DNA of 64,000 nt from an uncultured Pseudomonadota bacterium (GTDB lineage: Bacteria > Oederibacteriota > Muellerivitia > Muellerivitales > Muellerivitaceae): the NCBI GenBank assembly GCA_963843375.1, contig CAWJKT010000011.1, positions 288,001 through 352,000 on the forward strand, written 5' to 3'. This document shows, one piece after another, positions 3-26,173 of this stretch. Positions within the stretch are counted from its first letter, which is position 1; the number at the start of each line of letters is the position of its first letter. The position numbers and the translations under genes were made by a program. The notes beneath the pieces were generated by a model. That model was given only the letters and a program-made list of their open reading frames with translations. It ran no database searches and had not been told where the DNA came from.

Positions 3-2855
3 AGTTTCGCTTCCGTCAGTAACACTCCCGTAGCCACGCCAGAGTTAGCGACTGTCTCAGGTGCCGCCTCTATCATTGACGGAGTTGATGGGGGAGCTGA
101 CGGCGATATCTATGCCGCTCGGGCTATTGGTGCTTTCGATATCAACGGTGGAACTACTCAAGTAGTTTATCCGCCCACGGGAACCACCAGCGCCTCTGAA
201 ACCGTGTATGCCGGTTTTGCCCTCGGAACGGAACTCTCACCCGCGGGGGTGACCAGTGGTTACAATAATTTGGAAGATTTGGATGAAATTACTTTCTGGT
301 GCAAGTCTTCCATTGGGGGGATGGTGGTTAATCCAAATGGAACGGCTCCCGCGACGGATATTTGGATGCGGATGAATTTTGTTAACCCGTATATCACAAC
401 CGCCACTGGTGCAGGTTTAGTTGACTATTATGGATTTAATTTCGCAGTCACGGCGGCAAACACCTGGCAGCAATTCACCGTTCCCTTAAGCAGTATTACT
501 AACCAAAACTGGGGAACTGGATCCCAACCGCCGGTCAGCGGAGGAGTCAGTTACGTTATGCCGACGGCACCCGGCGCGACGGTTGCGGCGCCTGCGGCGA
601 ACGCCTTAAGCCAAATTTCCTCTATCGAATGGCAAACCGAAAGTAATACTGGCGCCACTTATCCCGTTTCTTTTACCTTTTGGATAGATCAAGTGTGCTT
701 GACTTTTGAAAACGATAGTCCGACTCCCACCGTGGTTATTGTGAATACCGCCACTCCGCTTCCCACCGCCACGCCCGTGAGCCAACCCACGGGAACCCCG
801 ACTGGAACGCCTACCATAACCGGGACTCCCACAAAGACGGTTACAAGTAGTCCAACAAATTCATCCACCTTCACTCTCACATCTACTGAAACCAATAGCC
901 CTACGGCCACTCTGACAAACACTTTGACTAAGACCGCTACTGCGACGCCGACCTCTACCTTGACCTCCACGCCGACATTAACCGTTACCAACAGCCTGAC
1001 GGCGACTTCCACGAGCACTTCAGCCAGCACTTCGACCAATACGGTAACCACTACCGCGACGGGGACCACGACTAATACCGCTACCCGTACCGCCACCGCT
1101 TCACCCTCCTATACCCCGACAGCTACCCCCACTAATACCCTGACGAATACTTCGACCAATACGGCCACTTCCACCACTACCCGTACCACCACTGCCACAG
1201 CTACCAACACCGCCACTTCCACCATCACGCTGACGGCGACCAATACGGCTACCGGTACCGCCACCTCAACGACGACCAATACCGCCACTCCCACTATCAG
1301 CGATACGCCGACCTTGAGCCCCACGGGAACCATCTTGACCTCGACGCCTACCTCGACTCCCACCAAGACGGCCACGAGTACGGCAACCTTCACGTCCACG
1401 AATACCGGCACCAACACCGCCACGGATACGACGACCATGACGGCGACCAATACCCCGACCAACACGACGACCCAAACCCCGACCAAGACCGCCACGAATA
1501 CGGCCACCGGTACCACGACGAATACGGCGACTCAAACGACCACCTTGACGCCCACCAGCACCTTGGCGAACACCGCGACCAATACGGCTACTTCAACACC
1601 TTCAAGTACGGCGACGCTCACCACGACTTTCACGGCCACCACTACACCAACGAATACGGCTTCTTCAACTACGACGTTGACACCTTCAAGCACTTTCGCC
1701 AATACCGCCACGAATACGGCTTCATCCACGCCCACCAGTACCTTTGCCGAGACCGCCACCAACACCGCCTCCCTGACGCCCACGGCAAGTCTTCCCAACA
1801 CACCCATAAACACCCCAACCAGTACCCCAACCAACACGGCAACCGAAACCAGGACTTCCACACCCACCAACACCTTGACGAATACGGTTACCAATACCAC
1901 CACTTCCACATTCACCAATACCTTTGCCACTACGGCCACTCAAACCCCTACAGCCACACCTACCAATACCTTGGCGAATACCGCGACCAATACGACAACC
2001 GCTACGGCTGTTTACACCGCTACCTTCACCATCACCGTAACCGGAACACCCACTCAAGTGACGGTCCAGGCTTCGCAGGGAACGAGTCCTCCTTCGAATT
2101 CCACCCAAGTGGCGGGAGCTTCCAGCGTGACGATACAGCAGATCCAACTGACCAATCCGGGTACCAATGTGGTGACTTTAAGCAGTTTGACCCTGAGCGA
2201 ATCAGGGGTTCCGCCCACGGGGATCACTTCCATATCGCTTGTGGACGACGGAACGGTGATCTCCACCGCCAGTTTCAGTGGAACGACGGCGACCTTTAGC
2301 TTAACGTCGAGCAATACCATTCCCGCCAGCAGCGGGGCGGTGACTTATGAAGTGGTGGTGAACTTCTCCAGCAGCGCGGCGGCAGGGAACTACGCCTTCA
2401 GTATCACCAGCGGTGCGGGGAGCAACGGCGAGCCGGTTCTATTCGCCAATATGCCGGTTGGCGGGGCGACAATCACGATCGGTTCGGGGAGTACCACGGC
2501 GTCCGCGACACCCACTTCCACGCTTCAACCGGGTTCAACGCCCGTTGTATACCCGAATCCGGCGACAGGCACAGAACCGGTCACGGTGGCGGCGACAACG
2601 AGTCAGGCGTCAGATTCGATGACGGTGCAGGTCTTCACGGTGGCCTTCCGGGAAGTGCAGAACAACGAGTACTCCACTTCGTCGCCGGGCGTGACGGCTT
2701 CCGTAAGCAGCGGAAGTACCACCGCCAAGACATGGCGTATACCTTTGATCCTCAGTGACAAGTGGGGCACGCCCCTGGCCAGCGGCCTTTATTACGTGGT
2801 GATCTCCAACCATATCGGCTACCACGCGGTGACCAAACTCCTCCTTTTGCGCTGA
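3..2855 (+). CDS. 5'-truncated secreted protein: CBM11/CIA30-like carbohydrate-binding domain, Thr-rich stalk, shared beta domain, T9SS-like CTD
   Basis: Frame is open from position 3, so the true start lies outside the window. ITFWCKS...WQQFTVPLSS...ISSIEWQ...FWIDQV pattern; ~450-aa TxTx region; C-terminal YPNP...LASGLYYVVI...KLLLLR. Confidence 0.75.
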   Translation, partial: SFASVSNTPVATPELATVSGAASIIDGVDGGADGDIYAARAIGAFDINGGTTQVVYPPTGTTSASETVYAGFALGTELSPAGVTSGYNNLEDLDEITFWCKSSIGGMVVNPNGTAPATDIWMRMNFVNPYITTATGAGLVDYYGFNFAVTAANTWQQFTVPLSSITNQNWGTGSQPPVSGGVSYVMPTAPGATVAAPAANALSQISSIEWQTESNTGATYPVSFTFWIDQVCLTFENDSPTPTVVIVNTATPLPTATPVSQPTGTPTGTPTITGTPTKTVTSSPTNSSTFTLTSTETNSPTATLTNTLTKTATATPTSTLTSTPTLTVTNSLTATSTSTSASTSTNTVTTTATGTTTNTATRTATASPSYTPTATPTNTLTNTSTNTATSTTTRTTTATATNTATSTITLTATNTATGTATSTTTNTATPTISDTPTLSPTGTILTSTPTSTPTKTATSTATFTSTNTGTNTATDTTTMTATNTPTNTTTQTPTKTATNTATGTTTNTATQTTTLTPTSTLANTATNTATSTPSSTATLTTTFTATTTPTNTASSTTTLTPSSTFANTATNTASSTPTSTFAETATNTASLTPTASLPNTPINTPTSTPTNTATETRTSTPTNTLTNTVTNTTTSTFTNTFATTATQTPTATPTNTLANTATNTTTATAVYTATFTITVTGTPTQVTVQASQGTSPPSNSTQVAGASSVTIQQIQLTNPGTNVVTLSSLTLSESGVPPTGITSISLVDDGTVISTASFSGTTATFSLTSSNTIPASSGAVTYEVVVNFSSSAAAGNYAFSITSGAGSNGEPVLFANMPVGGATITIGSGSTTASATPTSTLQPGSTPVVYPNPATGTEPVTVAATTSQASDSMTVQVFTVAFREVQNNEYSTSSPGVTASVSSGSTTAKTWRIPLILSDKWGTPLASGLYYVVISNHIGYHAVTKLLLLR

Positions 2856-2986
2856 TTCCAAACGTCTGTTAACCCAATTATTTCAATATAAATCTGTTAT
2901 AAACTTGTTCAATTTTCAAAGTACATGAAGATTGTTCTCCAACCTTTAGATGCTCTCTTTTCTAATTTATAATCCCTCGAAGTTTT

Positions 2987-3002
2987 GTGAAACCGGTTTC
3001 AC
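2987..3002. promoter_or_regulatory. LacI-type operator-like palindrome GTGAAACCGGTTTCAC
   Basis: Perfect 16-bp palindrome with central CG upstream of the ECF sigma gene; variants at 16897 and 22478. Confidence 0.65.
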
Positions 3003-3139
3003 TCCTTTGAATTGGGCTTTAAGATTAGCCGGCGGTTGGCTTTTGAGGTCGGAAATAAAGAATTTCTTGTCATTTCATTTTCTAGGGTCCGAAATGGAAT
3101 ATTTCGGGTTGAAATGGCACTAAGTCATTAGGAGATCCT

Positions 3140-3709
3140 TTGGACGAGCGGGAACTGGTTGAACGGATCCTAAAGGGTGACGAAAAGGCCAAAACGGAGT
3201 TTTATCGGGCTTACCAGCAAAAGCTCTATGGCTTTTGCGTGTACTTCATGGGGTCCAACGACCCGGAAATTGAGGACATCCTTCAGGAAGCTTTTCTGGC
3301 TGCTTTCCAAAAATTAGGCCAGTTTGAGTTTCGTTCCAGCCTGGATACCTGGTTGACCCAAATCTGTATTCACCAATGTTACCGGCATTTCCGAAAGCGC
3401 GGCCGAATGGTGACCCAGGCTGAAGAGGATTTGGAGGAAAGGCTAAAGCCCCTTGCTTTGGAGACCGCCCAACAGGCGGACCGAGATTTGGAAAGGAAGA
3501 CGAGGATGGAAACCGTCGACCGGGCCCTGGGAAGCATGGGGGAACCTTGTAAAAAGATGCTCCAACTAAGAATGAAGGAAAGCGCAAGTTACATTGAGAT
3601 TGCCCGGGCGTTGAAAGTTCCCATAGGAACGGTTATGTCTCGCTTGGCCCGTTGCACGGCAGGGCTGAAAGAAAGGGTAGAGAAGATGTTGGAAGAGGGG
3701 AAGCAATGA
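3140..3709 (+). CDS. ECF RNA polymerase sigma factor
   Basis: EDILQEAFL...FEFRSSLDTWL region 2 and SYIEIARALKVPIGTVMSRLAR region 4; GGAG RBS. Confidence 0.93.
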   Translation: MDERELVERILKGDEKAKTEFYRAYQQKLYGFCVYFMGSNDPEIEDILQEAFLAAFQKLGQFEFRSSLDTWLTQICIHQCYRHFRKRGRMVTQAEEDLEERLKPLALETAQQADRDLERKTRMETVDRALGSMGEPCKKMLQLRMKESASYIEIARALKVPIGTVMSRLARCTAGLKERVEKMLEEGKQ

Positions 3710-4362
3710 CAAACTTGGTGAATGAATTTTTCAACCGGAATTTGACCGAGGCCGAAGCTCAGAGTCTAGAAGAGCTTTTGGGTAATTCCCCCGAGGAAGC
3801 CATTCGGTTCGGGGAAAAAATGAAGCAAGAATATCTAGCCATGGGTCTGCCGATTCCCACGATTCCGAAAGATTTCGGACTCTCTCATCAGGTTCTTTCA
3901 CTGACCAAGTTGGCTTTGTTAGCAACCACCTTGTCACCAGTTATTCTCGTTTGGTCCCTGTGGCCTAAAACAACGTCCTGGAGATATCGCAAACTACAAC
4001 TTCGCCGCGCCAATGGAGAAAGTTGTGGTTCCCGCCGCCCTTTCCAGGCCAAAAACAATATTGCCGCCTCCGCCCCTATTAGATTCCCCAACGTCTGACG
4101 GGATCCTCGGTCTGAGGGAACCCGTTTGAGTGTCGTCGTTGAATTGGATAAACCTGCGCCGGTGGCAGTTTGCATCCTCGACCCCAAAGAGCAAACTGTG
4201 CGAACCCTTTACCAAGGAAATCTTTCTCCGGGGAAATGGTCAATCCATTGGGATGGGCTTCTATCCAACGGATCTCAGGCTCCTACAGGGGATTATCGTA
4301 TCTGGGTTAAGTCCGGAACGACCGAGATGTCCAAAAACGTGAGTATTGAAACGGGAAAATAG
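3706..4362 (+). CDS. Putative membrane anti-sigma factor with C-terminal FlgD-Ig-like domain (disrupted near 3980-4100)
   Basis: ATGA overlap with the sigma stop; N-terminal helical part, one TM segment, then VRTLYQG...WDG...APTGDYRI in the same frame after an in-frame stop at 4096-4098. Confidence 0.6.
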
Positions 4363-4415
4363 GTTATCATTTCCACGCTGTAGGTTATGAATAGGAAGAG
4401 CCTTCCGGGAATGTT

Positions 4416-5825
4416 ATGATTTTGCCGGGGGCATCCATGCGGCCGTCCGGCTTATCAAAATTCATAATTCCTTTTGTCTTCTTAAACCGATACAAGACCT
4501 ATCCTCGAAGAGGATTTTGGGCTTTATTTTGGTTTTTTTTCTTGGGCTTCGCCGAGTTTTTAGGGGTTTTCTTGCCGATGTCTTTTTCTGCCACGACTTC
4601 TTTCGCGCAAACGGTGACGGGAACAGCGAGCCTGGCGGCACCTTTAGAAAATCTCGAGGGCTCAGCCCGGGATTTGGCCCTGGGGTCAGCCTTTGTGGGC
4701 GTGGCCGACGATACCTCCGCCCTTTTCTTCAACCCTGCGGGACTTTCGGGTTTAATAAACCCGGACATTGCCATTCATCATAACAGTTATCTGGCGGGAA
4801 CTTTTCAAGAAACACTTACAGCGGGTTTCCCAGCCGGGAATCTGGGAGGATTGGCTTTTGCTTTGGATTATGTGGGTTGGGGGAGCCTTGATCTCCGGGA
4901 CGCCTTTGGTGTGTCCGAGGGAAGCTTCAACGATAGCGACGTGGGTTTTACTGCGGGCTGGGGTATGGAATGGTTCCCCGGTTTTTCGGTTGGCTTTGCC
5001 TTGAGAGGACTCCAACAGAAAGTTGTGAACGATCTTTACACCAGCTTGGCGGGGGACGCAGGACTCCTTTGGTTGGCGCAAAAAAATTTCCGCCTGGGCA
5101 TCTCTTATCTTAATTTTGGCACCCCGGTGGCAGGCAGCCCGCTTGCGGGTGAATTAAATGGCGGTGGATCAATTCTTTTCAACCTAACTCCTCATTCCAC
5201 CCTTATGTCGGCTTTGGAGGGATCTTGGACCCCAGGAGGAGTTGGTTCTGCCCAAGCAGGATTGGAAGGGGTTCTGGATCGTCAATGGGCATTGAGGTTG
5301 GGATACCAGCTGCCATTTTATGACAACCAAATCGATGGTCTAACCGGGTTTACCGCTGGCGCCGGTCTTAAAATTTCAGCTTTTGCTATAGATTATGCCT
5401 ATCTTCCCTTTGGCAGTTTGGGGACATCCAACCGCATTAGTTTAGCTTACCAATTTGACCTGCCTAAGGAAGTGGTAAAGGTAACCGTACCCGTTCAAGT
5501 GCCCGTGACGGTAGTTCAACCGGCTCCCGAACTCCCGGGCAAAGATGTTGAAGTTCATTTCAAAATCTCTACCGATCCCCTTGCCAAAGGACAGGAATTG
5601 GAAAAAGAAGGTAAACTGAAAGAAGCTATTGGGATTTACGTAGAAGGTCTCAAGGCAAATCCAGCCGATGATCTTCTTTGGCAGGCACTCGCCAATGACT
5701 ATTACGTCCTGAATGAAAAAGCCTATGCCATTGAGTGTTTTGAAAAAGTTCTCCAATTGAAGCCGGATAATCAGGCTCTAAAGGATTGGCTGGAGAAGTA
5801 CAAAGGATCAACGGTTTCGAATTGA
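4416..5825 (+). CDS. PorV/PorQ-family outer-membrane beta-barrel with C-terminal TPR
   Basis: GSARDLALGSAFVGVADDTSALFFNPAGL start, LRLGY, IDYAYLPFGSLG.SNRISLAY end of barrel; TPR-like tail. The start may be further downstream. Confidence 0.85.
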   Translation: MILPGASMRPSGLSKFIIPFVFLNRYKTYPRRGFWALFWFFFLGFAEFLGVFLPMSFSATTSFAQTVTGTASLAAPLENLEGSARDLALGSAFVGVADDTSALFFNPAGLSGLINPDIAIHHNSYLAGTFQETLTAGFPAGNLGGLAFALDYVGWGSLDLRDAFGVSEGSFNDSDVGFTAGWGMEWFPGFSVGFALRGLQQKVVNDLYTSLAGDAGLLWLAQKNFRLGISYLNFGTPVAGSPLAGELNGGGSILFNLTPHSTLMSALEGSWTPGGVGSAQAGLEGVLDRQWALRLGYQLPFYDNQIDGLTGFTAGAGLKISAFAIDYAYLPFGSLGTSNRISLAYQFDLPKEVVKVTVPVQVPVTVVQPAPELPGKDVEVHFKISTDPLAKGQELEKEGKLKEAIGIYVEGLKANPADDLLWQALANDYYVLNEKAYAIECFEKVLQLKPDNQALKDWLEKYKGSTVSN

Positions 5826-5847
5826 AGGCGGCACAAAGAGGTTTTTA

Positions 5848-7227
5848 ATGTTTTGGACGAAAACAATTCTGTCTTTTTCGTTTTTGGTTTTTTTGTGTTT
5901 GAGCTTTAGGACAGATCAAGCGCAGGGCCAAACTGCCACGCCCTCACCTACGGCCACTTCCGTGGTCTTGTCCTCTGCATTCCTGAACCAATCTTCCCCT
6001 TCCACGGTGGTGACGGGAGGACAAGTGGTCATCTATAACCTGGCCTATGGAAACACGGGGATTCCCGTGACCACATTGGACACCTTTGAGACCGATACAG
6101 TTGGAGGAATGCCAGCCAGTTGGGTTACCTATGGTGGCGCATCAGGAACGACCATTACCGAAACGGTTATCAGTGGAGCCGAATTCAATGGTCCAACCGC
6201 CCCGGGAAATCAATCTGTGTCGGTAGTTTATCCTTATGGTTGTACGAGTTTTTGCGGCCGTTTGGATTACACGGGTGCCGGACCAGTGACCGATGGTTCG
6301 ATCCAGGCGGATTTTTATTTTCCCAATTCGGGAAACGCGGCGGCCTTAATGTGGCGAAACGATGCCGTGGATGATCAATATCAGGTGACGGTTTCCCAGG
6401 GAACCAGCAACAATATAAATTTGGTGGTCCAGAAATCGGGCAGTTTTCAAATCCTCACCACCGCCAGCGCTAACATCAACACCAGCTCATGGATCACTGT
6501 CAAATTAGCAGTGTCGGGCGTGAACCCTGCTCTATTGACGGCTTATGTAAATGGAGTTCCAGTTGCAACGGCAAGCACCACAGTCCAATTAGCGCCCGGA
6601 TTTTCCGGAATCCAGGTACAAGGATTGTCGACAGTGATTTTTGACAACGTCCAGGTCGTCCAATCGCCGGATTTTGATAACGTGAATCTGCTGGATACTT
6701 TGCCAGCCGGATTGAGCTATGTTACGGCCACTGGAAGCCCGTCGGTCACAGAGCAAATCGTCAATTGGAACTTGGGAAGTTTAGTGGCGGGTTCAGCCGG
6801 GACCGTCCAAGTCGCCGCGACGGCCAATAACTGCGATAAGACTTTCACTAACTCAGCCCAATTGGATTTGGGTGCCCCCCCGGGATCGGTTACTTCCAAT
6901 CCGGTGACCACTTTGGGGGTCTGCAGCCCAACCCCCACTCCCCCGGCACCCGGCAATCAACCTTATGTATACTCCAACCCGTCCAGCGGCCCTACGGTTA
7001 GTTTCGTCTATAACATGGGGGAAAGTGGAAAGGCCGATATCCGAGTGTGGAACGCTTCGGGAGTTCTGGCGGCCAGCCTGGAGGACACGAAACCTGCCGG
7101 AGTCCAACAAAGTGTCCTCAATATACAAACCTTTGCGCCCGGGCATTATTTTTACCAGATAGACTTAAAGTACGATTCGGGTCAGGAGGATCGTTTTAAA
7201 CCCTCCGTATTGGCAATCCAGAAATAA
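5848..7227 (+). CDS. Secreted protein: DUF11-like domain with inserted lectin/LamG-like domain and divergent T9SS-like CTD
   Basis: Signal peptide; YNLAYGNTG and LLDTLPAGLSYV...WNLGSL...FTNSAQ motifs; YVYSNP...APGHYFY tail. Confidence 0.65.
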   Translation: MFWTKTILSFSFLVFLCLSFRTDQAQGQTATPSPTATSVVLSSAFLNQSSPSTVVTGGQVVIYNLAYGNTGIPVTTLDTFETDTVGGMPASWVTYGGASGTTITETVISGAEFNGPTAPGNQSVSVVYPYGCTSFCGRLDYTGAGPVTDGSIQADFYFPNSGNAAALMWRNDAVDDQYQVTVSQGTSNNINLVVQKSGSFQILTTASANINTSSWITVKLAVSGVNPALLTAYVNGVPVATASTTVQLAPGFSGIQVQGLSTVIFDNVQVVQSPDFDNVNLLDTLPAGLSYVTATGSPSVTEQIVNWNLGSLVAGSAGTVQVAATANNCDKTFTNSAQLDLGAPPGSVTSNPVTTLGVCSPTPTPPAPGNQPYVYSNPSSGPTVSFVYNMGESGKADIRVWNASGVLAASLEDTKPAGVQQSVLNIQTFAPGHYFYQIDLKYDSGQEDRFKPSVLAIQK

Positions 7228-7430
7228 GCTATTTAATTCTAGTTTTTAAGCTGAAAACTCCATAAATGAATACTTTCTTCGATTTTTTCTTAGGGATTGA
7301 GTGATAAATCAAAAAAAAATCGGAAAAGAGGGAATAAAACCATCTAGTTTTGGATCAAAGATACGGGAGACTCTATCCCGTCCAGCTTTGACGAGCGGGA
7401 ATTCCAAAAAATAACGGATGGCGGCGGAAA

Positions 7431-10400: not shown

Positions 10401-11332
10401 CGACTAATACATTAGCCAATACCGCCACTCAAACCGCTACGGCAACAGCGACCCATTCCGTAACGAATACCCCCACCTTTACGACAACCCCTACGGCGAC
10501 TTATACGCTGACCTCCACCTTTACGTTAACCACGACCCCCACGGAGGTGACGGTCCAAAGCTCCCAGGGCTCCAATCCTCCCATTAACTCCACCCAGGTC
10601 CCGGGTGCGGCGGGAGTCACGGTCCAGCAAATCCAGTTAACCAATCCGGGAGGGAATACGGTCACTTTGACCAGTTTAACTCTGACGGAGACGGGGGCGT
10701 CCCCTTCAGGGATCACTTCGGTGTCACTGGTGGACGATGGAACGGTTGTGTCTTCCGCCCCATTCACTGGTTCAACGGTGATCTTTAGTATTAACAATAC
10801 GATTCCCCCGAGTAATGGGGCGGTGACTTACGAAGTGGTGGTGAACTACTCGAGTAGTGCGCCAACTGGAAGCTATCAGTTCAGCGTAACAGCAGGGACC
10901 GGAACGAACGGCGAACCGGTGCTTTTCAGTGGTTTACCGGTGAGTGGAGCGACGATCACAATTGGTCTTGCCACTCTGACGCCTACCTCCACCGTGATGG
11001 CAACCTCCTCGGCTACTTCGACAGCGACCCTATCGGTTACCCCGACTCCGCAGGCCACTGTGATTGTGTATCCAAATCCAGCGACGGGTCCAGGACCGGT
11101 GACGCTTCAAATTTCTTTGGGAGCGCCCGCATCGAAAGTGACGATTGAGGTCTTTACTTTGGCCTTCAGGAAGGTGAATGAGATTAACTTGTCGAATATC
11201 CCAGCGGGCACCTTGGATGTGACCTTGCCTTTAACCGATAGGGGCGGGATCCCCCTGGCTAACGGGCTCTATTACGTCGTGATCCAGACACCCCAAGGCA
11301 GGTTTATCACAAAGCTCCTAATTATTAGATGA
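7431..11332 (+). CDS. Rhamnogalacturonan lyase (PL4-like) with Thr stalk, shared beta domain and CTD; one frameshift near 8075
   Basis: ORFs 7431-8081 and 8081-11332 abut; VTLANGIV, KY.YS, GGP..RELT.H, YQFW.....G.FTI.NV.PGTY.L.AF, WDIGIPDR...EF, DWNY, YDYVRLE motifs. Confidence 0.85.
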
Positions 11333-16896: not shown

Positions 16897-16914
16897 AATG
16901 AAACCGGTTACATT
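16897..16914. promoter_or_regulatory. LacI-type operator-like site AATGAAACCGGTTACATT
   Basis: Near-perfect palindrome ~100 bp upstream of the GH51-like gene. Confidence 0.65.
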
Positions 16915-17009
16915 GAATTTGGGTTTTATTGCTTTTCGACTCATAACGTTTTAGATAAGCGAATTATTTGAAAATAATTCGTTTTAAGTGTCCTTGGTCT
17001 TGAAGAGGA

Positions 17010-20000
17010 TTGGAAAAAATGCGGATCTTAAAAGTAATATTTTCAGCCCTCATTATTTTGTTTATTTTGGCAAACCTTTCTTACTTATATGCTCAGGCGA
17101 CCATTGCCGTGAACGCTGGTACAACCATTGTCACCATTCCAAACACCATTTATGGCAACAACGCACAGTATTACAACGCAGCCAACAATGGGACGAATGC
17201 CACTTACAATACCGCCATGCAAGTTTCCGGTTGCCATAACATCCGTTGGCCGGGTGGGTCCGAGGCCGATATCGTGAATTGGAATAATCTTGTTTGCGAG
17301 GATACCGGCGCCGCCACGACTCCCCAGTTCATAACTTTCCTTCAAACTATCGGTGGAACCATGCAGCCCATCGTGAATTTCAGCGGTTATTGGTGCAGCG
17401 GCGGGGCAGGGTCTGGCACCAGCACTCAATACACCTCAGCTGAAGCTGTCAGCTTAGCTGAAGCGTGGGTCACCTGGAACATGAGCAATACCGGTTCGGC
17501 CAAAGCGACCTATTGGGAAGTCGGCAACGAGACTTACGGTACTTGGGAACAGGGAGGGGGTATCAGTGGCACGGACTACGGAGTGACTTTTGCCACTTAT
17601 TACACCGGTATGAAAGCGATCGATCCCACCATCCAGATCGGGGCGGTAGCGTCGCCCGGTGCAACGGATTATAACGACTGGACATCGGAAATGCTCACCG
17701 CCGCCAAGGCCGGGGGTGTCGTTCCCGACTTCCTGATCATCCACAATTATCCTGTTACCGCCGGTGCTCCGGCGGGCCAAGCCACGGATTCTTACATCCT
17801 CAGTTATCCCGCCACTGTCGCAACCCAAACCGCCAGCTTGAACTCTATAGTTTCCTCTGCTTTAGGTAGTTCCTACGTTGGCCAAGTGAAATACTTCATG
17901 ACCGAATACAACTCCACTCTTGGACCCGACGCCCAAACCGATGAATATGTGAATGCCATGTTCGTGTCCGAATGGATACTGAATTGTGCCGAAAATGGCT
18001 GGATTGGGGCGAATCTTTGGGCCTCTTTAAACGGAGGTTCTCCTGATTATGGTTTTCTCAACGCTACCACCTATGCTCCTTACCCGGATTATTACGTTTT
18101 CCCGATGCTGACCGAAAAATTTGGAAACAGTATGGTTACCTGCTCGAGTAGTGTTACCACTGTAAATGCCCACGCAGCAATAAACACGGCGGGAGATCTC
18201 ACTCTTTATTTGGTCAATAATAGCCCGACGGCAACAATGGCCACTACGATTACCGTGGCAGGGTTTACACCCTCTTCATCGGGCCAAGCCTGGGTTATGC
18301 TGCCTTCGGGTACCAGTTCCTCGGGGGCGCCGCAAGAAGTTCCTAGTATCTCAATCAACGGCACGGTGAATCCCGCCCCCTCCAATATCGCATCCATTGC
18401 CGGAGTTGCACAAACTACCGGGTCTACTTTTACGGTAAGTCTTCAACCCAGTGAAATGGACATGATCGTTATTCCGGGTACCAGTTCAACGGGATCGACC
18501 AGTACACCCACCGAAACCCCGACCGTCACCCCCACCAACACGCCGACGAAAACAGCGACGGCTACAGCGACGAACAGTCCGACAGCCACTCGCACGAACA
18601 CCGCCACGAATACGGCCACCTCCAGCGCCACGAAGACGGCTACACCCACAATGACTAACACTGTGACCAATACAACCACCGTTACGGCCAGTTCGACTCC
18701 GACTTCCAGCCCTACCGCCACTCGCACGAACACCGCCACGAATACGGCCACCTCCAGCGCCACGAAGACGGCTACACCCACAATGACTAACACTGTGACC
18801 AATACAACCACCGTTACGGCCAGTTCGACTCCGACTTCCAGCCCTACCGCCACACGAACGAATACCGTGACGAACACGACTACTTCCAGTCCAACAAGGA
18901 CCCCCACGACGACCGCGACCAATACGGTGGTCAACACTTTGACGTCAACGCCGTCCAGTACAGCTACAGGCACGGCGACTACCACAAGGACAAATACCGT
19001 GACGAATACGACTACTTTCAGCCCAACGGACACCACTACGGCTACCGCGACCAACACGACGGCGAATACGGCGACTCAAACTCCCACGGCGACGCCTACG
19101 AATACCCTGGCTAATACCGCAACCGATACTCCGACTACGACTGCTTCAAACACCGTCACTAAAACGACGACCTCCACCCCTACGAACACCTTGGCGAATA
19201 CGGCGACTCAAACCGCTACGGCGACGCCCACCAATACTTTGGCTAATACCACAACCGACACTCCAACTACGACCGCTTCAAATACCGTGACTAAAACAAC
19301 GACGTCCACCCCCACGAACACCTTGGCGAATACGGCGACTCAAACCGTCACATCAACGCCCAGCAATACCGTGGTTAATACCCCTTCGAACACCACCACC
19401 CAAACGACGACCTTTACCCCCACGAACACCTTGGCGGATACAGCGACTCAAACTCCCACGGCGACGCCTACGAATACCTTAGCTGATAGCGCAACCAATA
19501 CACCAACCGCAACCGCTTCGAATACCGTCACTAAAACGACGACCTCCACCCCCACGAACACTTTGGCGAATACGGCGACTCAAACCGTCACATCAACGCC
19601 CAGCAATACCGTGGTTAATACCTCAACCTCCACTCCAACCGCTACCGCTTCGAACACCGCCACCAAAACAACGACTTCAACCACTACGTTAACTCCCACT
19701 GAAACATTGACGAATACCCTGACTCATACGACAACCTCCACGGCTACCACTACCGTTACTTTCACGATCACGCCGACCGCCACTCCAACGGCGGTGACAG
19801 TACAGGCTTCACAAGGATCGAACCCTCCCTCGAATTCCACTCAAGTGGCGGGAGCTTCCGGCGTGACCATACAGCAGATTCAGTTAACCAATCCGGGCAA
19901 TAATCCAGTTACCTTGAGCAGTTTGACTCTTACGGAAGCAGGGACTTCGCCCACGGGAATCACTTCCGTATCGCTTGTGGACGATGGGACGATTATTTCC

Positions 20001-20570
20001 ACCACCAGTTTCATCGGATCAACCGCCACCATTAATTTCAGCAATATCATTCCTCCCAGTAACGGGGCGGTCACTTACCAGGTAGTGGTGAATTTCTCGA
20101 ATAGCGCGGCGACAGGGAACTACACATTCAGCGTGACAGGCGGGGCAGGGACCAATGGCCAGGCAGTCCTTTTTGCCAATATGCCCGTACCCGGATCGGT
20201 CGTTACTATCGTGATGGCGACACCTTCGAATACTCCCGCGGCAGCCACATCCACCATCACTTCAACCGCCACCCCTACGGCTACCTCCACGGGTCACCTG
20301 GGCGTCGTGGTTTATCCCAACCCGGTAACGGGGTCGACGGTAAGTGTGCTTCCGCCGGCATATTCAGGAGTTTCGGATGTTCAGGTGGAGATTTTCACCA
20401 TAGCCTTCCGGGAAGTTCAGGAGGAGTTCTTCCGGAACGTGCCGTCGGGTAAGGCGGTAACGCTGGAGTTAACCGATAAATCGGGAACTCCTTTGGCGGA
20501 TGGGATCTATTACATCGTCGTCATCGTCGATGGACACCGCTCCATCGGAAAAATGCTCATCATCCGTTGA
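17010..20570 (+). CDS. Clan GH-A glycoside hydrolase (GH51/GH44-like, arabinofuranosidase-like) with Thr stalk, shared beta domain and CTD
   Basis: IRWPGGS, YWEVGNE.YG.WE, MKAIDPTIQIG, H.YP, MTEYN motifs; likely start is ATG 17019. Confidence 0.8.
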   Translation: MEKMRILKVIFSALIILFILANLSYLYAQATIAVNAGTTIVTIPNTIYGNNAQYYNAANNGTNATYNTAMQVSGCHNIRWPGGSEADIVNWNNLVCEDTGAATTPQFITFLQTIGGTMQPIVNFSGYWCSGGAGSGTSTQYTSAEAVSLAEAWVTWNMSNTGSAKATYWEVGNETYGTWEQGGGISGTDYGVTFATYYTGMKAIDPTIQIGAVASPGATDYNDWTSEMLTAAKAGGVVPDFLIIHNYPVTAGAPAGQATDSYILSYPATVATQTASLNSIVSSALGSSYVGQVKYFMTEYNSTLGPDAQTDEYVNAMFVSEWILNCAENGWIGANLWASLNGGSPDYGFLNATTYAPYPDYYVFPMLTEKFGNSMVTCSSSVTTVNAHAAINTAGDLTLYLVNNSPTATMATTITVAGFTPSSSGQAWVMLPSGTSSSGAPQEVPSISINGTVNPAPSNIASIAGVAQTTGSTFTVSLQPSEMDMIVIPGTSSTGSTSTPTETPTVTPTNTPTKTATATATNSPTATRTNTATNTATSSATKTATPTMTNTVTNTTTVTASSTPTSSPTATRTNTATNTATSSATKTATPTMTNTVTNTTTVTASSTPTSSPTATRTNTVTNTTTSSPTRTPTTTATNTVVNTLTSTPSSTATGTATTTRTNTVTNTTTFSPTDTTTATATNTTANTATQTPTATPTNTLANTATDTPTTTASNTVTKTTTSTPTNTLANTATQTATATPTNTLANTTTDTPTTTASNTVTKTTTSTPTNTLANTATQTVTSTPSNTVVNTPSNTTTQTTTFTPTNTLADTATQTPTATPTNTLADSATNTPTATASNTVTKTTTSTPTNTLANTATQTVTSTPSNTVVNTSTSTPTATASNTATKTTTSTTTLTPTETLTNTLTHTTTSTATTTVTFTITPTATPTAVTVQASQGSNPPSNSTQVAGASGVTIQQIQLTNPGNNPVTLSSLTLTEAGTSPTGITSVSLVDDGTIISTTSFIGSTATINFSNIIPPSNGAVTYQVVVNFSNSAATGNYTFSVTGGAGTNGQAVLFANMPVPGSVVTIVMATPSNTPAAATSTITSTATPTATSTGHLGVVVYPNPVTGSTVSVLPPAYSGVSDVQVEIFTIAFREVQEEFFRNVPSGKAVTLELTDKSGTPLADGIYYIVVIVDGHRSIGKMLIIR

Positions 20571-20572
20571 GG
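18936..20572 (+). repeat. Direct repeat copy 1 (~1.64 kb), matching 24539-26175
   Basis: Constant offset of 5603; translations identical; no nucleotide difference seen by eye. Confidence 0.93.
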
Positions 20573-20653
20573 TTTTTATACTGCATTATTTGATTTAGAT
20601 GGCTAGGACGTTTTTAAGTTCATGGTTCGACCGAAGCGTGTTAATTTGATTTT

Positions 20654-22460
20654 ATGCCGCTTCGAACTTCGGAAATTAAAGCCCACTTTGAAGGCCTTTT
20701 AGAATACGAGGCCTTTCTTTCCATCTTAAAATATTATGTTGACCTGAACTGTTTCGTCGTGCCCCCTACGGATTCGAAGGATATATGGGCGGCGGTATAC
20801 CATCATCAACGATTAGAATCTCTTTTCGATTTCGAAAAAAAATATAACTTTGTCCGTAACTGGGACCTTTTGACGGATAACGTTTTTGAAAACAAAAACA
20901 AGGGTAAACCCCTTCTTGTAGAGAATCTGGGATTTTATGATATTTTCACGCCGATTCGTAAAAAGGGAAAGCGGCTGGGAACCCTATTGTCTGGGGCATT
21001 CGCCGATAAAGAATTGACCTATCCTCACTTGCGGGAAAGTTGGAACCGGTTGACCGGTCAAACCGCTTCTCCCGAAAATACGGAGTTTCGTGAATTCGTC
21101 AGGGTGATGCTGGAAATTCCAGTTCTCGAGGGAGGGGTTCTATTAGCCTATCAGGAAGCCCTTGAAATCTTCGCCAACATTTTAACCCACGAAGAAAACA
21201 GGCAAGCCCAAAAGCGGATTCGGGAATTAATCGTAAATGTTTTTTCCAAGAACATTCCCCACAGTTTTTGGATGAGCTGGGTATTGGGGCTTCCCACGCG
21301 CCAGACCACACCGACTTGGAACATAAAGGTTCAGAACCTTGACTGGGTACGGTCTGAAATCGGTATTACTCGAGTTCCAACCACCGTCATTACGGCCATT
21401 CCAGTGAAACCCACGGAACGCAAAACCGATTCTATTGAAGAGATGATCCGTATTTACCGGTTCCAACGCCGAAGTTTTTCTTTCGCCCGAAACCTTCCCC
21501 AAACGGTTGGGGGAAAGCTTGAAAACTACGGGGCGGTTTTCGTCGATTTCCCCGGACCCCGAAAAGAGCCGGCCTCAGCGCCGTCAACAAGTCCTGGAAG
21601 CGGCGGAACGCATTCATCAATTCTCCGAAGATATATTGGGCGGTCCAGCCTTGGTTGGAATCGGAGAAACGGTCGCGCCCGGGGAACTCTTAAAGGAATC
21701 TCACCGCCAGGCGGTACTGGCCCTCCACCTCGGGCGTCTATCCGGAAAGAAACTGGTTTTTTTTAGCCTTTCCCGGGATGAAAAAACAGAAGGTCTGTTG
21801 AAATTGAGGAAGCTCTTACTGGGGTTGAGGCGGCAAATTGAGACGGCTTCATTTTCGGGAGTGGAATCAGTCCTTGATGAGTATCTCCACGAAGTACTAA
21901 CCCTTTCCTTTCAAAATCCCGAGGAAATACGCTGGCATTTGCAATATGGGATTATTCATTTGGTGGAAGCCATGAAAAATCTAACCGACCTAGGCGAAAA
22001 AGAAACGCGTGTTTTTTATGAAAGTCTTGCGCTTTCGCTGGATGGAACTGGAACCACTCAAGAAATGGTTTTGGCTTTCAAGGAAGCGATGGAAAAATTT
22101 TTGAAGTTGACGCATGGCAAAGGCTCGCTGGCGGAAAACTATTCTATCGAGAAGATAAAGGATTATGTCGACAGGCATTTTGAGGAGCACTTGCGGATAT
22201 CAAGGCTTGCTGGGATGGCGAAGATTTCTATTTCTACCCTCAGCCGCCGTTTTAAAAAAAGTACGGGAATGGGATTGGAAATCTATCTCCAAAATCTGCG
22301 ACTGGAGAAAGCGCGCCGGTTGTTAAAAACCGGAGGTCTTCCCGTGTCCCAAATCGCGAAAGCTTGCGGGTTTGGGTCGAGTTCCTATTTCATCCGTTTG
22401 TTCCGTAGAAAAACAGGAATTTCACCCCAAAAATTCCGTCAAAACCCTAAAAAGGTTTGA
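20654..22460 (+). CDS. AraC-family transcriptional regulator with large N-terminal sensor region; frameshift near 21545
   Basis: Overlapping ORFs 20654-21766 and 21507-22460; C-terminal LSRRFKK..G...YL...RLEKARRLL...IAKACGFGSSSYF..LF...TG.SP..FR. Confidence 0.88.
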
Positions 22461-22477
22461 ACGAAAAACTTTTTCGC

Positions 22478-22493
22478 TTAAACCGGTTACATT
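22478..22493. promoter_or_regulatory. LacI-type operator-like site TTAAACCGGTTACATT
   Basis: Same AAACCGGTT(A/T)CA core upstream of the GH30 gene. Confidence 0.55.
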
Positions 22494-22696
22494 GGGTATG
22501 TGAAATAAAAGTCAATTTTTTTGACCTTATGGTACTATTGATTTCGGTCTCTTTCCTTGTGAAGACCTACTTTTAGCGGTATGTTTTTGTCACAAAGATA
22601 AACGACCCTTCGGCTTTCGAAAAAAGCGCTTTTTATACGCGGAGTAAAGTTTTTCCTTAACCTGATTTAAATCGTTATAGGTGAGTTTTTGGAGGG

Positions 22697-25600
22697 ATGG
22701 GCGGGCATAATTGTCGTTTGGCCCGATTGAGGAATAAATTGATGTGCTTTTTAAGAAAAATTAAAATTTGGTTTTTCATTGCGAGCTTATTCGGTCTTGC
22801 TTTTTCAGCTTCAGCCCAAACCGCAACCATCAATGCCAACACCACAAACCAATTCATCCGTGGTTTTGGGGCTTCCAGCGCTTGGCATACCGGCGCCTAC
22901 ACCGCCGCTCAAGCTACGATTTTTTGGGACGATACCACCATGAATGGAAACAACCCCGCAGGAATCGGGTTGTCCATGCTGCGTTGCCGAATCCCGCCCG
23001 ATAATCCCACCACTGGCAATTCGACCAGTGGAAGTGACATCACCGATACAGGGGAAATAGCCGTTATGAACCAGGCCAAAGGCATGGGCCTTAGCCAGAT
23101 TTGGGCCACTGAATGGTCTGTCCCCGCTGTTTGGAAAAGTAATGACAGTTTGGATAACGGCGGAACCATTGAAGCGGCTGATTATCCCAATTACGCCAAG
23201 TACCTTCTTGATTATGTTAATTATTGTCAGAGTCAAGGCGTCACATTAATGTGCGTTTCGGCACAAAACGAACCTGATCAGAATGTCACCTATGAATCCG
23301 GAATCTGGACAGGGCAGGTTTTTCACGATTTCATTTCGGAAGATGAAGGAGCGGAATTTAAGGGCAATGCCACTAAAATCATGATGCCGGAGCCTTCCAA
23401 AAACGATCTTTTGACTGGGGGTTGCACCGGGGATGGAGACGCAACTTGTTCCTTAAGTGATGCCGCTGCCGCCACCTATATTTCTTTTATTGGCACTCAC
23501 CTTTATGGTTCAGGACCTTTGGCCTTCGCTGACACCCAAGAAAATGCCCCAACAGGCGTAACAAGAGAATATTGGGAAACCGAGATGATGGACTACAACG
23601 GAGGGGCGGCTTCCGATGATTCGATGACGGATGGTCTCGCTACGGCGACTTTAATCCAAAACTCCATGAGTGTCAGCATGAATGCTTATCATTACTGGTG
23701 GCTGGAATGTGAAAACAGCAATACGAACCAAGGACTAATCGATTACGATGGAACGACCGTTCCCCAAAGAACTTGGTGCATGGGCAATTTCAGTCGGTTT
23801 ATCCGTCCGGGCTATTACCGGATGGGCGGCACCATTACTTCTTTAGCGAACGTTTCAATTACAGCTTATAAGGATAATGTCGGGACGCCTGTGACCTTCG
23901 TTATCGTGGCAATCAACTCGGGAAATTCTGCCGCCAACCAAACCTTTACATTAAGTGGGATTACTACCACCTCAGTAACGCCCTGGCTGACCGATTCCAG
24001 TAACAACCTTACTCAACAAACCGCGGTAGCTGTTTCGGGAGGAAGTTTCACCTATTCCATGCCGGTTTCCAGTGTCGTGAGTTTTGTAGGGGTTAACAGC
24101 GCTACCGGCTCAACCAACACCTTCACCCCGACCCCCACCAACACGCCGACGAAAACAGCGACGGCTACAGCGACGAACAGTCCGACAGCCACTCGCACGA
24201 ACACCGCCACGAATACGGCCACCTCCAGCGCCACGAAGACGGCTACACCCACAATGACTAACACTGTGACCAATACAACCACCGTTACGGCCAGTTCGAC
24301 TCCGACTTCCAGCCCTACCGCCACACGAACGAATACCGTGACGAACACGACTACTTCCAGTCCAACAAGGACCCCCACGACGACCGCGACCAATACGGTG
24401 GTCAACACTTTGACGTCAACGCCGTCCAGTACGGCTACAAGCACGGCGACTACCACAAGGACAAATACCGTGACGAACACGACTACTTTCAGTCCAACGA
24501 GCACCCCCACTCCCACCGCAACCAATACAGTGGTAAATACTTTGACGTCAACGCCGTCCAGTACAGCTACAGGCACGGCGACTACCACAAGGACAAATAC
24601 CGTGACGAATACGACTACTTTCAGCCCAACGGACACCACTACGGCTACCGCGACCAACACGACGGCGAATACGGCGACTCAAACTCCCACGGCGACGCCT
24701 ACGAATACCCTGGCTAATACCGCAACCGATACTCCGACTACGACTGCTTCAAACACCGTCACTAAAACGACGACCTCCACCCCTACGAACACCTTGGCGA
24801 ATACGGCGACTCAAACCGCTACGGCGACGCCCACCAATACTTTGGCTAATACCACAACCGACACTCCAACTACGACCGCTTCAAATACCGTGACTAAAAC
24901 AACGACGTCCACCCCCACGAACACCTTGGCGAATACGGCGACTCAAACCGTCACATCAACGCCCAGCAATACCGTGGTTAATACCCCTTCGAACACCACC
25001 ACCCAAACGACGACCTTTACCCCCACGAACACCTTGGCGGATACAGCGACTCAAACTCCCACGGCGACGCCTACGAATACCTTAGCTGATAGCGCAACCA
25101 ATACACCAACCGCAACCGCTTCGAATACCGTCACTAAAACGACGACCTCCACCCCCACGAACACTTTGGCGAATACGGCGACTCAAACCGTCACATCAAC
25201 GCCCAGCAATACCGTGGTTAATACCTCAACCTCCACTCCAACCGCTACCGCTTCGAACACCGCCACCAAAACAACGACTTCAACCACTACGTTAACTCCC
25301 ACTGAAACATTGACGAATACCCTGACTCATACGACAACCTCCACGGCTACCACTACCGTTACTTTCACGATCACGCCGACCGCCACTCCAACGGCGGTGA
25401 CAGTACAGGCTTCACAAGGATCGAACCCTCCCTCGAATTCCACTCAAGTGGCGGGAGCTTCCGGCGTGACCATACAGCAGATTCAGTTAACCAATCCGGG
25501 CAATAATCCAGTTACCTTGAGCAGTTTGACTCTTACGGAAGCAGGGACTTCGCCCACGGGAATCACTTCCGTATCGCTTGTGGACGATGGGACGATTATT

Positions 25601-26173
25601 TCCACCACCAGTTTCATCGGATCAACCGCCACCATTAATTTCAGCAATATCATTCCTCCCAGTAACGGGGCGGTCACTTACCAGGTAGTGGTGAATTTCT
25701 CGAATAGCGCGGCGACAGGGAACTACACATTCAGCGTGACAGGCGGGGCAGGGACCAATGGCCAGGCAGTCCTTTTTGCCAATATGCCCGTACCCGGATC
25801 GGTCGTTACTATCGTGATGGCGACACCTTCGAATACTCCCGCGGCAGCCACATCCACCATCACTTCAACCGCCACCCCTACGGCTACCTCCACGGGTCAC
25901 CTGGGCGTCGTGGTTTATCCCAACCCGGTAACGGGGTCGACGGTAAGTGTGCTTCCGCCGGCATATTCAGGAGTTTCGGATGTTCAGGTGGAGATTTTCA
26001 CCATAGCCTTCCGGGAAGTTCAGGAGGAGTTCTTCCGGAACGTGCCGTCGGGTAAGGCGGTAACGCTGGAGTTAACCGATAAATCGGGAACTCCTTTGGC
26101 GGATGGGATCTATTACATCGTCGTCATCGTCGATGGACACCGCTCCATCGGAAAAATGCTCATCATCCGTTGA
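22697..26173 (+). CDS. GH30 glycoside hydrolase (glucuronoxylanase-like) with Thr stalk, shared beta domain and CTD
   Basis: IRGFGAS, GLSMLR.RI, WS.PA.WK, S.QNEPD...YES..W, H.YG, WETE, NAY.YWW, NFSRFIRPGY.R; start probably near 22742. Confidence 0.88.
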   Translation: MGGHNCRLARLRNKLMCFLRKIKIWFFIASLFGLAFSASAQTATINANTTNQFIRGFGASSAWHTGAYTAAQATIFWDDTTMNGNNPAGIGLSMLRCRIPPDNPTTGNSTSGSDITDTGEIAVMNQAKGMGLSQIWATEWSVPAVWKSNDSLDNGGTIEAADYPNYAKYLLDYVNYCQSQGVTLMCVSAQNEPDQNVTYESGIWTGQVFHDFISEDEGAEFKGNATKIMMPEPSKNDLLTGGCTGDGDATCSLSDAAAATYISFIGTHLYGSGPLAFADTQENAPTGVTREYWETEMMDYNGGAASDDSMTDGLATATLIQNSMSVSMNAYHYWWLECENSNTNQGLIDYDGTTVPQRTWCMGNFSRFIRPGYYRMGGTITSLANVSITAYKDNVGTPVTFVIVAINSGNSAANQTFTLSGITTTSVTPWLTDSSNNLTQQTAVAVSGGSFTYSMPVSSVVSFVGVNSATGSTNTFTPTPTNTPTKTATATATNSPTATRTNTATNTATSSATKTATPTMTNTVTNTTTVTASSTPTSSPTATRTNTVTNTTTSSPTRTPTTTATNTVVNTLTSTPSSTATSTATTTRTNTVTNTTTFSPTSTPTPTATNTVVNTLTSTPSSTATGTATTTRTNTVTNTTTFSPTDTTTATATNTTANTATQTPTATPTNTLANTATDTPTTTASNTVTKTTTSTPTNTLANTATQTATATPTNTLANTTTDTPTTTASNTVTKTTTSTPTNTLANTATQTVTSTPSNTVVNTPSNTTTQTTTFTPTNTLADTATQTPTATPTNTLADSATNTPTATASNTVTKTTTSTPTNTLANTATQTVTSTPSNTVVNTSTSTPTATASNTATKTTTSTTTLTPTETLTNTLTHTTTSTATTTVTFTITPTATPTAVTVQASQGSNPPSNSTQVAGASGVTIQQIQLTNPGNNPVTLSSLTLTEAGTSPTGITSVSLVDDGTIISTTSFIGSTATINFSNIIPPSNGAVTYQVVVNFSNSAATGNYTFSVTGGAGTNGQAVLFANMPVPGSVVTIVMATPSNTPAAATSTITSTATPTATSTGHLGVVVYPNPVTGSTVSVLPPAYSGVSDVQVEIFTIAFREVQEEFFRNVPSGKAVTLELTDKSGTPLADGIYYIVVIVDGHRSIGKMLIIR

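Follow-up and report, generated by a model that had tools for sequence, protein, structure and literature searches.

The type IX system of secretion (T9SS) has been described as limited to the Fibrobacteres–Chlorobi–Bacteroidetes (FCB) group (PMC11205867), one paper stating that phyla other than those of FCB lack its genes (PMC11285876), and an origin as part of the gliding machinery has been suggested for it (PMC12635249). The motifs of its C-terminal domains (CTDs) are reported to specify the fold, not contacts with the translocon (Lauber et al., PMC10994853). Some proteins keep this domain: the CTDs of PorU and PorZ are retained uncut (PMC10202324), and type B cargo is kept uncut on PorP/SprF shuttles (PMC10202324, PMC12618676). 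Reduced component sets are described within Bacteroidetes, where 'Incertae sedis' members have Sov, PorV, PorQ, PorU and PorZ but no PorK/L/M/N, and Sphingobacteriia are without PorU/Q/Z, with uncut cargo bound to PorV being mentioned (PMC7323717). T9SS-like tails on enzymes are reported from Cloacimonadota (PMC8542988), and a lone PorV/PorQ-family barrel from a spirochaete (10.1101/2025.01.03.631275). Here we analyzed a 64,000-nucleotide stretch of DNA from an uncultured soil bacterium (hereafter the window; contig CAWJKT010000011.1, or G000:C11:288001-352000, where G000 is the host assembly of 4.05 Mb, 80% complete), whose first 26 kb encode plant-wall enzymes ending in a threonine-rich stalk and a T9SS-like tail with the motif FTxAFR. 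We consider it slightly better than an even chance that these stalked carbohydrate-active enzymes (CAZymes) leave the cell by a motor-less, sortase-less variant of the T9SS and are probably held by their uncut tails.

A class of FTxAFR tails on stalked enzymes

As the initial annotation of the window had proposed, five large open reading frames (ORFs) lie there on the + strand, all of which combine a Thr-rich stalk with a C-terminal tail of about 90 aa with the consensus YPNP...(I/V)FT.AFR.V...D..G.PLA.G.YY...K(L/M)L. The stalk measures 349–450 aa rather than the 400–500 aa first given, and in the five enzymes 67–81% of its threonines are followed by a second threonine two residues later. Using a tail-core profile grown from the five window tails (an earlier version took in the Thr stalk, gave 50 decoy matches and was discarded), we found 87 ORFs in the genome and none in reversed decoys. 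Thirty-five of the 87 carry the FTxAFR variant (pattern [FY][TS]x(1-2)[FY]R); all 35 of these tails end at the stop codon, the median tail length is 91 aa, and PNP, G.YY and K are invariant in the aligned FTxAFR tails. A hydrophobic signal-type stretch lies near the frame start in 31/35 FTxAFR proteins, as judged by inspection of the sequence and not by a predictor; the four without it include the frameshifted PL4 protein and the borderline GH28 protein of the window. The predicted mature N termini of many FTxAFR proteins begin with Gln, which resembles the Q-rule that reportedly holds in Bacteroidetes.

Glycoside hydrolase (GH) or polysaccharide lyase (PL) heads are present in 16 of the 35 FTxAFR proteins, compared with 0/34 other tail ORFs scanned (18 non-FTxAFR tail ORFs lay outside this head scan). 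The heads are GH5 (four), GH30 (four), GH12 (two), GH8, GH9, GH28, GH44, GH62 and PL4, and further FTxAFR proteins have malectin, F5/8 or BNR matches, three are peptidases and two are beta-propellers. With GH5, GH8, GH9, GH12, GH44, GH62, peptidases and beta-propellers among its members, the class is not the pectin/hemicellulose-only set that was first suggested.

When the tails were compared with TIGR04183, the family of T9SS CTDs, 29/29 matched at E ≤ 0.1, the isolated PL4 tail scoring 23.2 against a cut-off of 23; in whole proteins the scores were 16.7–21.4 bits, and FlgD_ig scored as well or better. In the PDB, the tail profile matched the PorU CTD (E 1.5e-5), the translocon-bound CTD 8GLK_D, FlgD and PorZ, and FTxAFR aligned with the PorU CTD stretch YDFTGR (YDxxGR). 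In a model of spacer plus tail (mean pLDDT 69, linker disordered), the tail matched FlgD (Z 9.5), the PorU CTD (Z 9.3; root-mean-square deviation 3.0, 93 aligned), PorZ (Z 8.7) and the mirolase CTD (8.6), with a range of Z 7.8–9.3 over the PorU, PorZ, mirolase and 8GLK CTDs. Because of these profile and model matches the tail is not a new fold; in the model, seven strands form an Ig-like sandwich that closes the protein and bears YPNP, GxY and the terminal Lys. The earlier assignment of the tails to type A CTDs (TIGR04183/PF18962) fits the fold and the family match, with scores from below to just above the cut-off: on profile and predicted model, they are long, FlgD-like, borderline type A CTDs, nearest to the uncleaved PorU CTD. 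The idea that FTxAFR marks a new signal had to be dropped, since 29/29 tails match TIGR04183 and the motif aligns with YDxxGR of PorU.

Our comparisons covered 17 genomes of the host family and 61 or 81 genomes of the phylum depending on the search, some searches being made in 18 or 5 genomes. Strong FTxAFR matches number at least 14–44 per genome in 17/17 family genomes and at least 10 in one genome of the same order, whereas 42 other phylum genomes gave at least 0–8 matches each, much weaker; this supports the supposed lineage bias of the motif, which is strong and multi-copy in the family and order of the host, with only weak matches in the rest of the phylum. Of the 150 best representatives from a library of 1.84 billion, a query-biased set, 143 have the motif and 38/40 long ones have a stalk. 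In a tree of 83 tails (4/87 rows were left out, three identical and one short), the FTxAFR tails formed a clade of 30 members and one other (support 99/92), with three more beside it; the motif columns were kept, so that this clade is partly circular. Since the FTxAFR tails make up approximately one clade, they may owe the motif to the expansion of a single tail and not to a separate pathway.

A SprA-like pore and PorV-family barrels with no motor detected

A T9SS-like outer-membrane core is present as a SprA-like pore and PorV-family barrels. The SprA-like gene lies on contig C15 of the host assembly, from 110180 on, and is matched by TIGR04189 in three stretches (E 7.5e-35), below cut-off; it is frameshifted in G000 and intact in relatives, at 1973–2029 codons (2029 in L007). 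Searched against the PDB as single sequences, neither the SprA-like protein nor the window barrel had a match, and deeper profiles were needed: a six-sequence SprA-like profile matched only SprA 6H3I/6H3J (three collinear stretches; 6H3I_A, E 3.3e-18) and one Fn3 protein. The gene was found in 77/81 phylum genomes; of the 81, 7 score above cut-off and 74 below it. The PorV family was above cut-off in 61/61, with 19 loci in G000 after merging 24 matches. Directly 3' of sprA, 8/8 loci listed have a Fn3-type repeat protein of ~1550 aa with a tail (L007:16167-20837; G000:C15:~116200-121036), which may belong to the core machinery instead of being an ordinary cargo. Four barrels with long C-terminal extensions were seen (G000:C25:10995-13154, C3:152908-155304, C4:270172-272118 and C28:13434-15272), the extensions being FlgD-like, OmpA-like and Fn3-like by eye; two of these barrels lie in or near flagellar or housekeeping operons.

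Of the components whose search the initial annotation had proposed, only a SprA-like one was found, PorK/L/M/N and PorU being undetected. Profile searches, made without a positive control, gave GldM in 0/61 and GldN in 0/61 phylum genomes and one weak GldL match in 61; PorP/SprF, likewise without a positive control, was above cut-off in 0/18 genomes, with one weak match. GldK was above cut-off in 0/18 genomes; FGE-type sub-cut-off matches occurred in 9/18 and also in controls, and had no gldKLMN-like surroundings. One of the two FGE-type matches of G000 lies in C4:~505000-519000, which resembles unrelated high-G+C DNA and is possible contamination. Peptidase C25, the family of the PorU sortase and the gingipains, was found in 0/17 family genomes, with none in G000. 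C25 peptidases occur in 8/61 phylum genomes outside the host family (L016-L018), and those lineages may therefore cut their tails. SusC and SusD are absent, as first claimed (0/5 genomes above cut-off, with a positive Bacteroides thetaiotaomicron control), the TonB receptors present being ordinary ones, and cohesin and dockerin were above cut-off in 0/5 genomes each, with positive controls.

Judged from its genes, the host does not appear to be an ordinary member of Bacteroidota with a canonical T9SS, pore and carrier being there and motor, ring and sortase not detected. It apparently belongs to candidate phylum FCPU426, an assignment made by the labels of its nearest relatives and without a marker-gene tree. 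The nearest relatives of the SprA-like gene are titled FCPU426 in four of nine loci, 'bacterium' in four and 'uncultured proteobacterium' in one, and the next are FCPU426 and Elusimicrobia, the gene being named 'hypothetical protein' where the sources name it. That the host is not an ordinary Bacteroidota is thus supported by the classification that the initial annotation had called for, in which the nearest relatives by core genes carry FCPU426/Elusimicrobia labels. Four FCPU426-titled genomes have 21–44 strong FTxAFR tails apiece, flagellar genes occur in the host genome, and a search of the G000 assembly for a 16S gene found none. A 16S cluster of FCPU426 has been grouped with Goldbacteria, adjoining Firestonebacteria and Elusimicrobia (PMC7031533).

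Failure to detect a motor might also mean that a complete T9SS with motor and ring is present and too divergent for the profiles, or that a stator of the ExbBD/TonB or TolQR type has been borrowed. We consider this unlikely. It is favored by the SprA score, itself below cut-off, by the missing positive control for GldL/M/N, by the 5–6 MotA/ExbB/TolQ genes per genome in 5/5 genomes, and by the many barrels whose periplasmic-type extensions (TPR, Fn3, OmpA-like) would be open to pulling. On the other hand, the method that gave nothing for GldM/N across 61 genomes did find SprA, PorV and CTD; G000 has its six MotA/ExbB loci beside TonB receptors or flagellar genes, and none together with SprA or a barrel; and the housekeeping barrel described below has no extension and a single cysteine in its open frame. 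Overall, export by a SprA/PorV-like route seems quite probable, and the lack of a GldLM-type motor probable.

One could also see in the tail a FlgD-like interaction domain that works in the periplasm or at an S-layer, unconnected with outer-membrane export, because FlgD is its top structural match and the anti-sigma proteins and some barrel extensions share the fold. This seems to us most improbable: the heads act on plant-wall polymers, which cannot enter the periplasm, nearly every genome sampled from the phylum has SprA-like and PorV-like genes, and a tail-bearing Fn3 protein follows sprA in 8/8 loci.

The barrel of the locus and a candidate general carrier

A PorV-family barrel does lie inside the locus at 4416 (NF033709, 111.5 bits against a cut-off of 90), scoring 37.4 on the strict PorV equivalog against a cut-off of 250. 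The proposal that this barrel serves the five FTxAFR enzymes as a dedicated shuttle draws on its position among them and on several relatives in which FTxAFR genes follow such barrels, but we regard it as very unlikely. Within 1.5 kb, 34 of the 35 FTxAFR genes have no barrel; counted at ≤500 bp, 0/35 FTxAFR genes and 10/48 other cargo genes are close to one (p 0.004; anti-sigma genes excluded), and at ≤1.5 kb 1/35 and 10/48 (p 0.02), p values that are too favorable to our view because the paralogs are not independent. The three closest paralogs of the window barrel stand in similar cassettes with an extracytoplasmic function (ECF) sigma factor and an anti-sigma protein with a FlgD domain. The abutting 5848 cargo has another class of tail, which groups with two other cassette cargo tails (support 98/92). 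In relatives, the cassette (ECF sigma factor, anti-sigma protein, barrel and sensor-cargo) is kept as a unit while the cargo is swappable, being lectin-like, PA14 plus CBM9, or lyase-like; it is followed by PL4-GH53-GH28 in two relatives and by GH28 in a third. A four-sequence profile of the cassette barrels had no match in the PDB. By sequence, the window barrel more probably works with the 5848 protein as part of an ECF cassette than as the enzymes' shuttle, and the cassette would probably act as a surface-sensing switch for the pectin genes beside it.

A better candidate for the general carrier than the window barrel would be a housekeeping PorV-like paralog, G000:C3:37658-38532, which is top-scoring and has no extension and one cysteine in the whole open frame. 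Among 14 loci taken from the 17 family genomes it is the best match in 13, with 54–78% identity, and its surroundings are syntenic, the conserved housekeeping neighbours being uvrA in 12 loci and a CRP-like gene in 13. Its profile matches PorV 6H3I_F (E 2.7e-28).

Retention or release of the enzymes

Between stalk and tail, four of the five enzymes (not GH28) and 11 proteins genome-wide have an Ig-like spacer, a beta-sandwich of ~140 aa whose best fold matches are the N-terminal domains of two Bacteroidota sialidases (Z 11.7 and 10.2). In the ESM Atlas the spacer has no named family, PF14873 in 15% of one cluster being a lead only. A cellulosome reading of the spacer was rejected, since dockerin is lacking and the likeness to cohesins (Z 8.1–8.8) is below the best matches. 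The stalk-spacer-tail block at 18528..20572 (+) recurs at 24131-26175 behind another catalytic head, with 96.8% identity over 2048 nt, apparently by a recent duplication, and 890-2851 of the GH8 gene shares 98% identity with the back half of a GH5 gene on contig C32. These 97–98% identical blocks show that new enzymes arise by head exchange on a shared stalk-spacer-tail block. A protein O-mannosyltransferase search was weakly positive in 18/18 genomes, but E. coli and further controls gave such matches too, and it therefore says nothing either way on stalk glycosylation. Large non-enzymatic, adhesin-like tail proteins with 380–2190 stalk residues were also seen (G000:C18:7239-17330, C14:108602-115399 and C7:106187-114769), some with tandem FlgD-like domains ahead of the tail.

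By analogy with known retained cargo, we take surface retention of the enzymes to be rather probable. Another possibility, which we find doubtful, is that the enzymes take the same export route and are then released or cut by another protease. In that case the stalk would serve as a flexible linker, probably glycosylated, and the spacer as a module for binding substrate or cells. Type A cargo is indeed often released (PMC10994853, PMC10202324). The sialidase-domain matches of the spacer would fit a binding module, and CBM3, a carbohydrate-binding module (CBM), adjoins the tail in three FTxAFR proteins. Release or cutting would have to proceed in a family with no C25 sortase in 17/17 genomes, and stalks of 350–450 aa far exceed the needs of simple inter-domain linkers. 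Moreover, the lipoprotein-type GH53 of the locus has a like stalk between its anchor and its enzyme, which fits a role of the stalk in spacing from the surface.

Organization of the window

The first gene, at 3..2855 (+), is the C-terminal two thirds of a GH8 protein whose 1416-codon frame starts ~1.4 kb to the left of the window. It had been annotated as CBM-like; its stalk and tail plan was correctly seen, whereas the gene as a whole has a GH8 domain (PF01270, 94.9 bits) beginning outside the window, and the CBM-like region has no Pfam match. The stalk lies at ~738-2057, an Ig-like spacer starts at 2055 and the FTxAFR tail is at 2541-2852, and a GH5 gene with the same stalk and tail is directly upstream. 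A 14-bp perfect palindrome at 2988..3001, 5' of the sigma gene, is the sole perfect copy in the genome, and we take it to be a LacI-type operator. Variants lie at 16899 and 22478, upstream of the GH39/51-like and GH30 genes, and a site with ≤2 mismatches occurs at 6/87 tail genes, against a background of 0.008 per region.

The cassette begins with the ECF sigma factor at 3140..3709 (+; TIGR02937, 87.7 bits, cut-off 42.9), followed by an anti-sigma-like protein at 3706..4362 (+) consisting of an N-terminal region, one transmembrane stretch, a Pro-rich linker and a C-terminal FlgD_ig domain (PF13860, 49.2 bits), its gene being split by assembly indels (3/4 runs) and intact in the same-genus L019. 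The PorV/PorQ-family barrel with TPR at its C terminus occupies 4416..5825 (+; barrel part ~4641-5456), and the cassette cargo 5848..7227 (+). As annotated, this cargo has a divergent tail (no FTxAFR; TIGR04183, 21.4 bits), which comes after a signal peptide, a lectin-like region and DUF11.

The enzyme genes follow. The rhamnogalacturonan lyase-like PL4 protein (7431..11332, +; PF06045 and PF14686) has a stalk of 349 aa, an Ig spacer at 10544-10966 and an FTxAFR tail at 11060-11329. It is a single gene, the frameshift at 8069 being a base missing from the assembly and present according to 4/4 runs. The GH53 galactanase-like protein (11357..13588, +; PF07745, 263.6 bits) reverses the plan of the five: a lipoprotein-type signal, a Thr/Ser stalk of 376 aa, and then the enzyme at the C terminus, without a tail. 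The polygalacturonase-like GH28 protein (13842..16649, +; PF00295) has a 432-aa stalk and an FTxAFR tail with no Ig spacer; the best holders of its gene are labelled metagenome or soil metagenome, and no RNA source is among the holders listed. The protein at 17010..20570 (+), with a 450-aa stalk, Ig spacer and FTxAFR tail, is a clan-A-type hydrolase that matches GH39 beta-xylosidases (E 9e-7) slightly better than GH51 arabinofuranosidases (E 6e-5), both weakly, so that its earlier GH51-like label holds in part, while the PL4, GH28 and GH30 assignments stand. A PocR-sensor AraC-family regulator (20654..22460, +) is one gene, an extra base at 21543 being missing in 3/4 runs, with the fourth uncovered. 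The GH30, XynC-like xylanase (22697..26173, +; PF14587/PF02055, XynC-like 181 bits) has a 447-aa stalk, an Ig spacer and a tail identical to that of the 17010 protein. The breaks in the PL4, anti-sigma and AraC genes are assembly errors, contigs of 4/4, 3/4 and 3/4 public runs having compensating indels (one of these runs may itself be the source of the assembly), and all three genes are unbroken in a same-genus genome.

Elsewhere in the window, lipoprotein-type proteins at 57743-58933 (-) and 62699-63847 (+) have a Thr stalk with an ice-binding-like DUF3494 domain (PF11999), and a further stalked lipoprotein-type protein without a Pfam match lies at 38349-40286; they look like a second, lipid-anchored stalk route resembling GH53. 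The genes at 26720-38107 are presumably a respiratory cluster (Rieske/cytochrome b/c with heme and copper oxidase assembly genes), and we take 51366-57473 to be another, with cytochrome oxidase and Rieske/cytochrome b; several genes of both are split, probably by assembly frameshifts. Just 5' of the enzyme cluster, next to a GH44 gene, lie three paralogous membrane proteins (L006:6343-10631, -) without an informative Pfam match, which are glycosyltransferase-like by eye only.

Discussion

In the T9SS variant that we favor, the enzymes would be exported by Sec through their signal-type stretch, and the tail, predicted to fold as a seven-stranded CTD/FlgD sandwich, would dock on a PorV-family barrel in the SprA-like pore, as the homology to 6H3I/8GLK suggests. 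The putative carrier at this step is the housekeeping paralog G000:C3:37658-38532. Release from the pore would draw on some other energy source, or none. Because PorU is missing, the tail would stay uncut and keep the enzyme on the barrel, like PorU, PorZ and type B cargo, and the stalk would hold the catalytic head away from the lipopolysaccharide. The sigma factor, anti-sigma protein, PorV-TPR barrel and lectin-like cargo may act together as a sensing switch.

Several points weigh against this reading. In Bacteroidota, drawing the carrier with its cargo out of SprA requires the motor, and in Flavobacterium johnsoniae release from the translocon needs energy, which comes from GldLM (PMC10994853), so that a motor-less pore needs explaining. 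Once on PorV, type A cargo is as a rule passed on or set free, its affinity being thought to fall after it has left SprA (PMC10994853), and in this model 35 kinds of cargo would depend on a single general carrier. Fibrobacter tails are reported to be apparently cleaved (PMC6851124), and a protease other than C25 may cut the tails here. As SprA itself is below cut-off in 74/81 genomes, divergent motor proteins could be missed in GldL/M/N searches without a positive control. The host assembly is 80% complete. FlgD, the tail's top structural match, is no secretion signal, and the anti-sigma proteins with the same fold are presumably periplasmic. Finally, some relatives (e.g. L128) have an FTxAFR gene immediately after the cassette barrel, and that barrel may accordingly be a carrier too.

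More tentatively, and with less than even confidence, we suggest that a flagellated phylum outside the FCB group has a SprA plus PorV core without GldKLMN and sortase and uses its expanded carrier family as an address code, with a general carrier for a family-specific class of stalked CAZymes that make up a surface 'enzyme brush', and carriers of their own for the sensors that are coupled to ECF sigma factors. This would be an ancestral or independent state of the type IX system and a third way of displaying plant-wall enzymes, next to polysaccharide utilization loci and cellulosomes. In the literature outside subscription journals and supplements, we found neither an ECF sigma/PorV-barrel cassette nor the motor-less system of this host in print, and no T9SS parts described for FCPU426, Goldbacteria or Elusimicrobiota. 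A SprA plus PorV core with no detected motor, in 77/81 and 61/61 genomes, makes the energy need and the evolutionary order testable. FCPU426/Goldbacteria-type plant-polymer degraders have many GH5/8/9/44 enzymes, and their export route is not discussed in the consulted part of the report (PMC7031533); our model offers a route by which they place enzymes on the substrate, as well as a compact, head-swappable display scaffold.

Among known systems, the closest is the type A T9SS (SprA/Sov and PorV; 6H3I, 8GLK; TIGR04183, TIGR04189, NF033709), with which the host shares a homologous pore, carrier and seven-stranded tail, the plan of signal peptide, cargo and CTD, and CAZyme and peptidase cargo. 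The host differs in that GldL/M/N, GldK, PorU and SprF were undetected, in its ~19 PorV loci, many of them extended, in the longer tail, and in apparently lying outside the FCB group. The pairs PorU on PorV, PorZ on PorQ and type B cargo on PorP/SprF also hold cargo by an intact tail, with cognate pairs as well as orphans sharing a carrier, but in the host the paired carriers are of the PorV family, the tails are type A-like and retention would be the expected outcome by analogy. In the reduced Bacteroidetes sets, which are FCB, the losses are separate, whereas in the host they are combined, and neither a carrier expansion nor a stalked class is described there. Fibrobacter succinogenes, with its BTD/T9SS-signal cellulases (PMC6851124), is likewise a plant-wall degrader outside Bacteroidota with T9SS-like tails; it differs from the host in belonging to the FCB group and in having tails proposed to be cleaved, and no stalk is reported in the text consulted.

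FecA-FecR-FecI is a cell-surface signalling system of a receptor, an envelope relay and an ECF sigma factor. The cassette shares a surface protein, an envelope relay and an ECF sigma factor with PorA-PorV-PorXY-SigP (PMC7712824); compared with both systems, its outer part is a PorV-TPR barrel and its anti-sigma protein is FlgD-like, with no TonB receptor or two-component pair. Like polysaccharide utilization loci and cellulosomes, the host clusters regulated plant-wall enzymes near the cell surface, but SusCD, dockerin and cohesin are not above cut-off and every enzyme has its own stalk and tail. What the window adds is a division of the tails into an FTxAFR class, rich in CAZymes and unlinked to carriers, and other classes that are paired with a carrier, together with a candidate general carrier and a swappable stalk-spacer-tail block.

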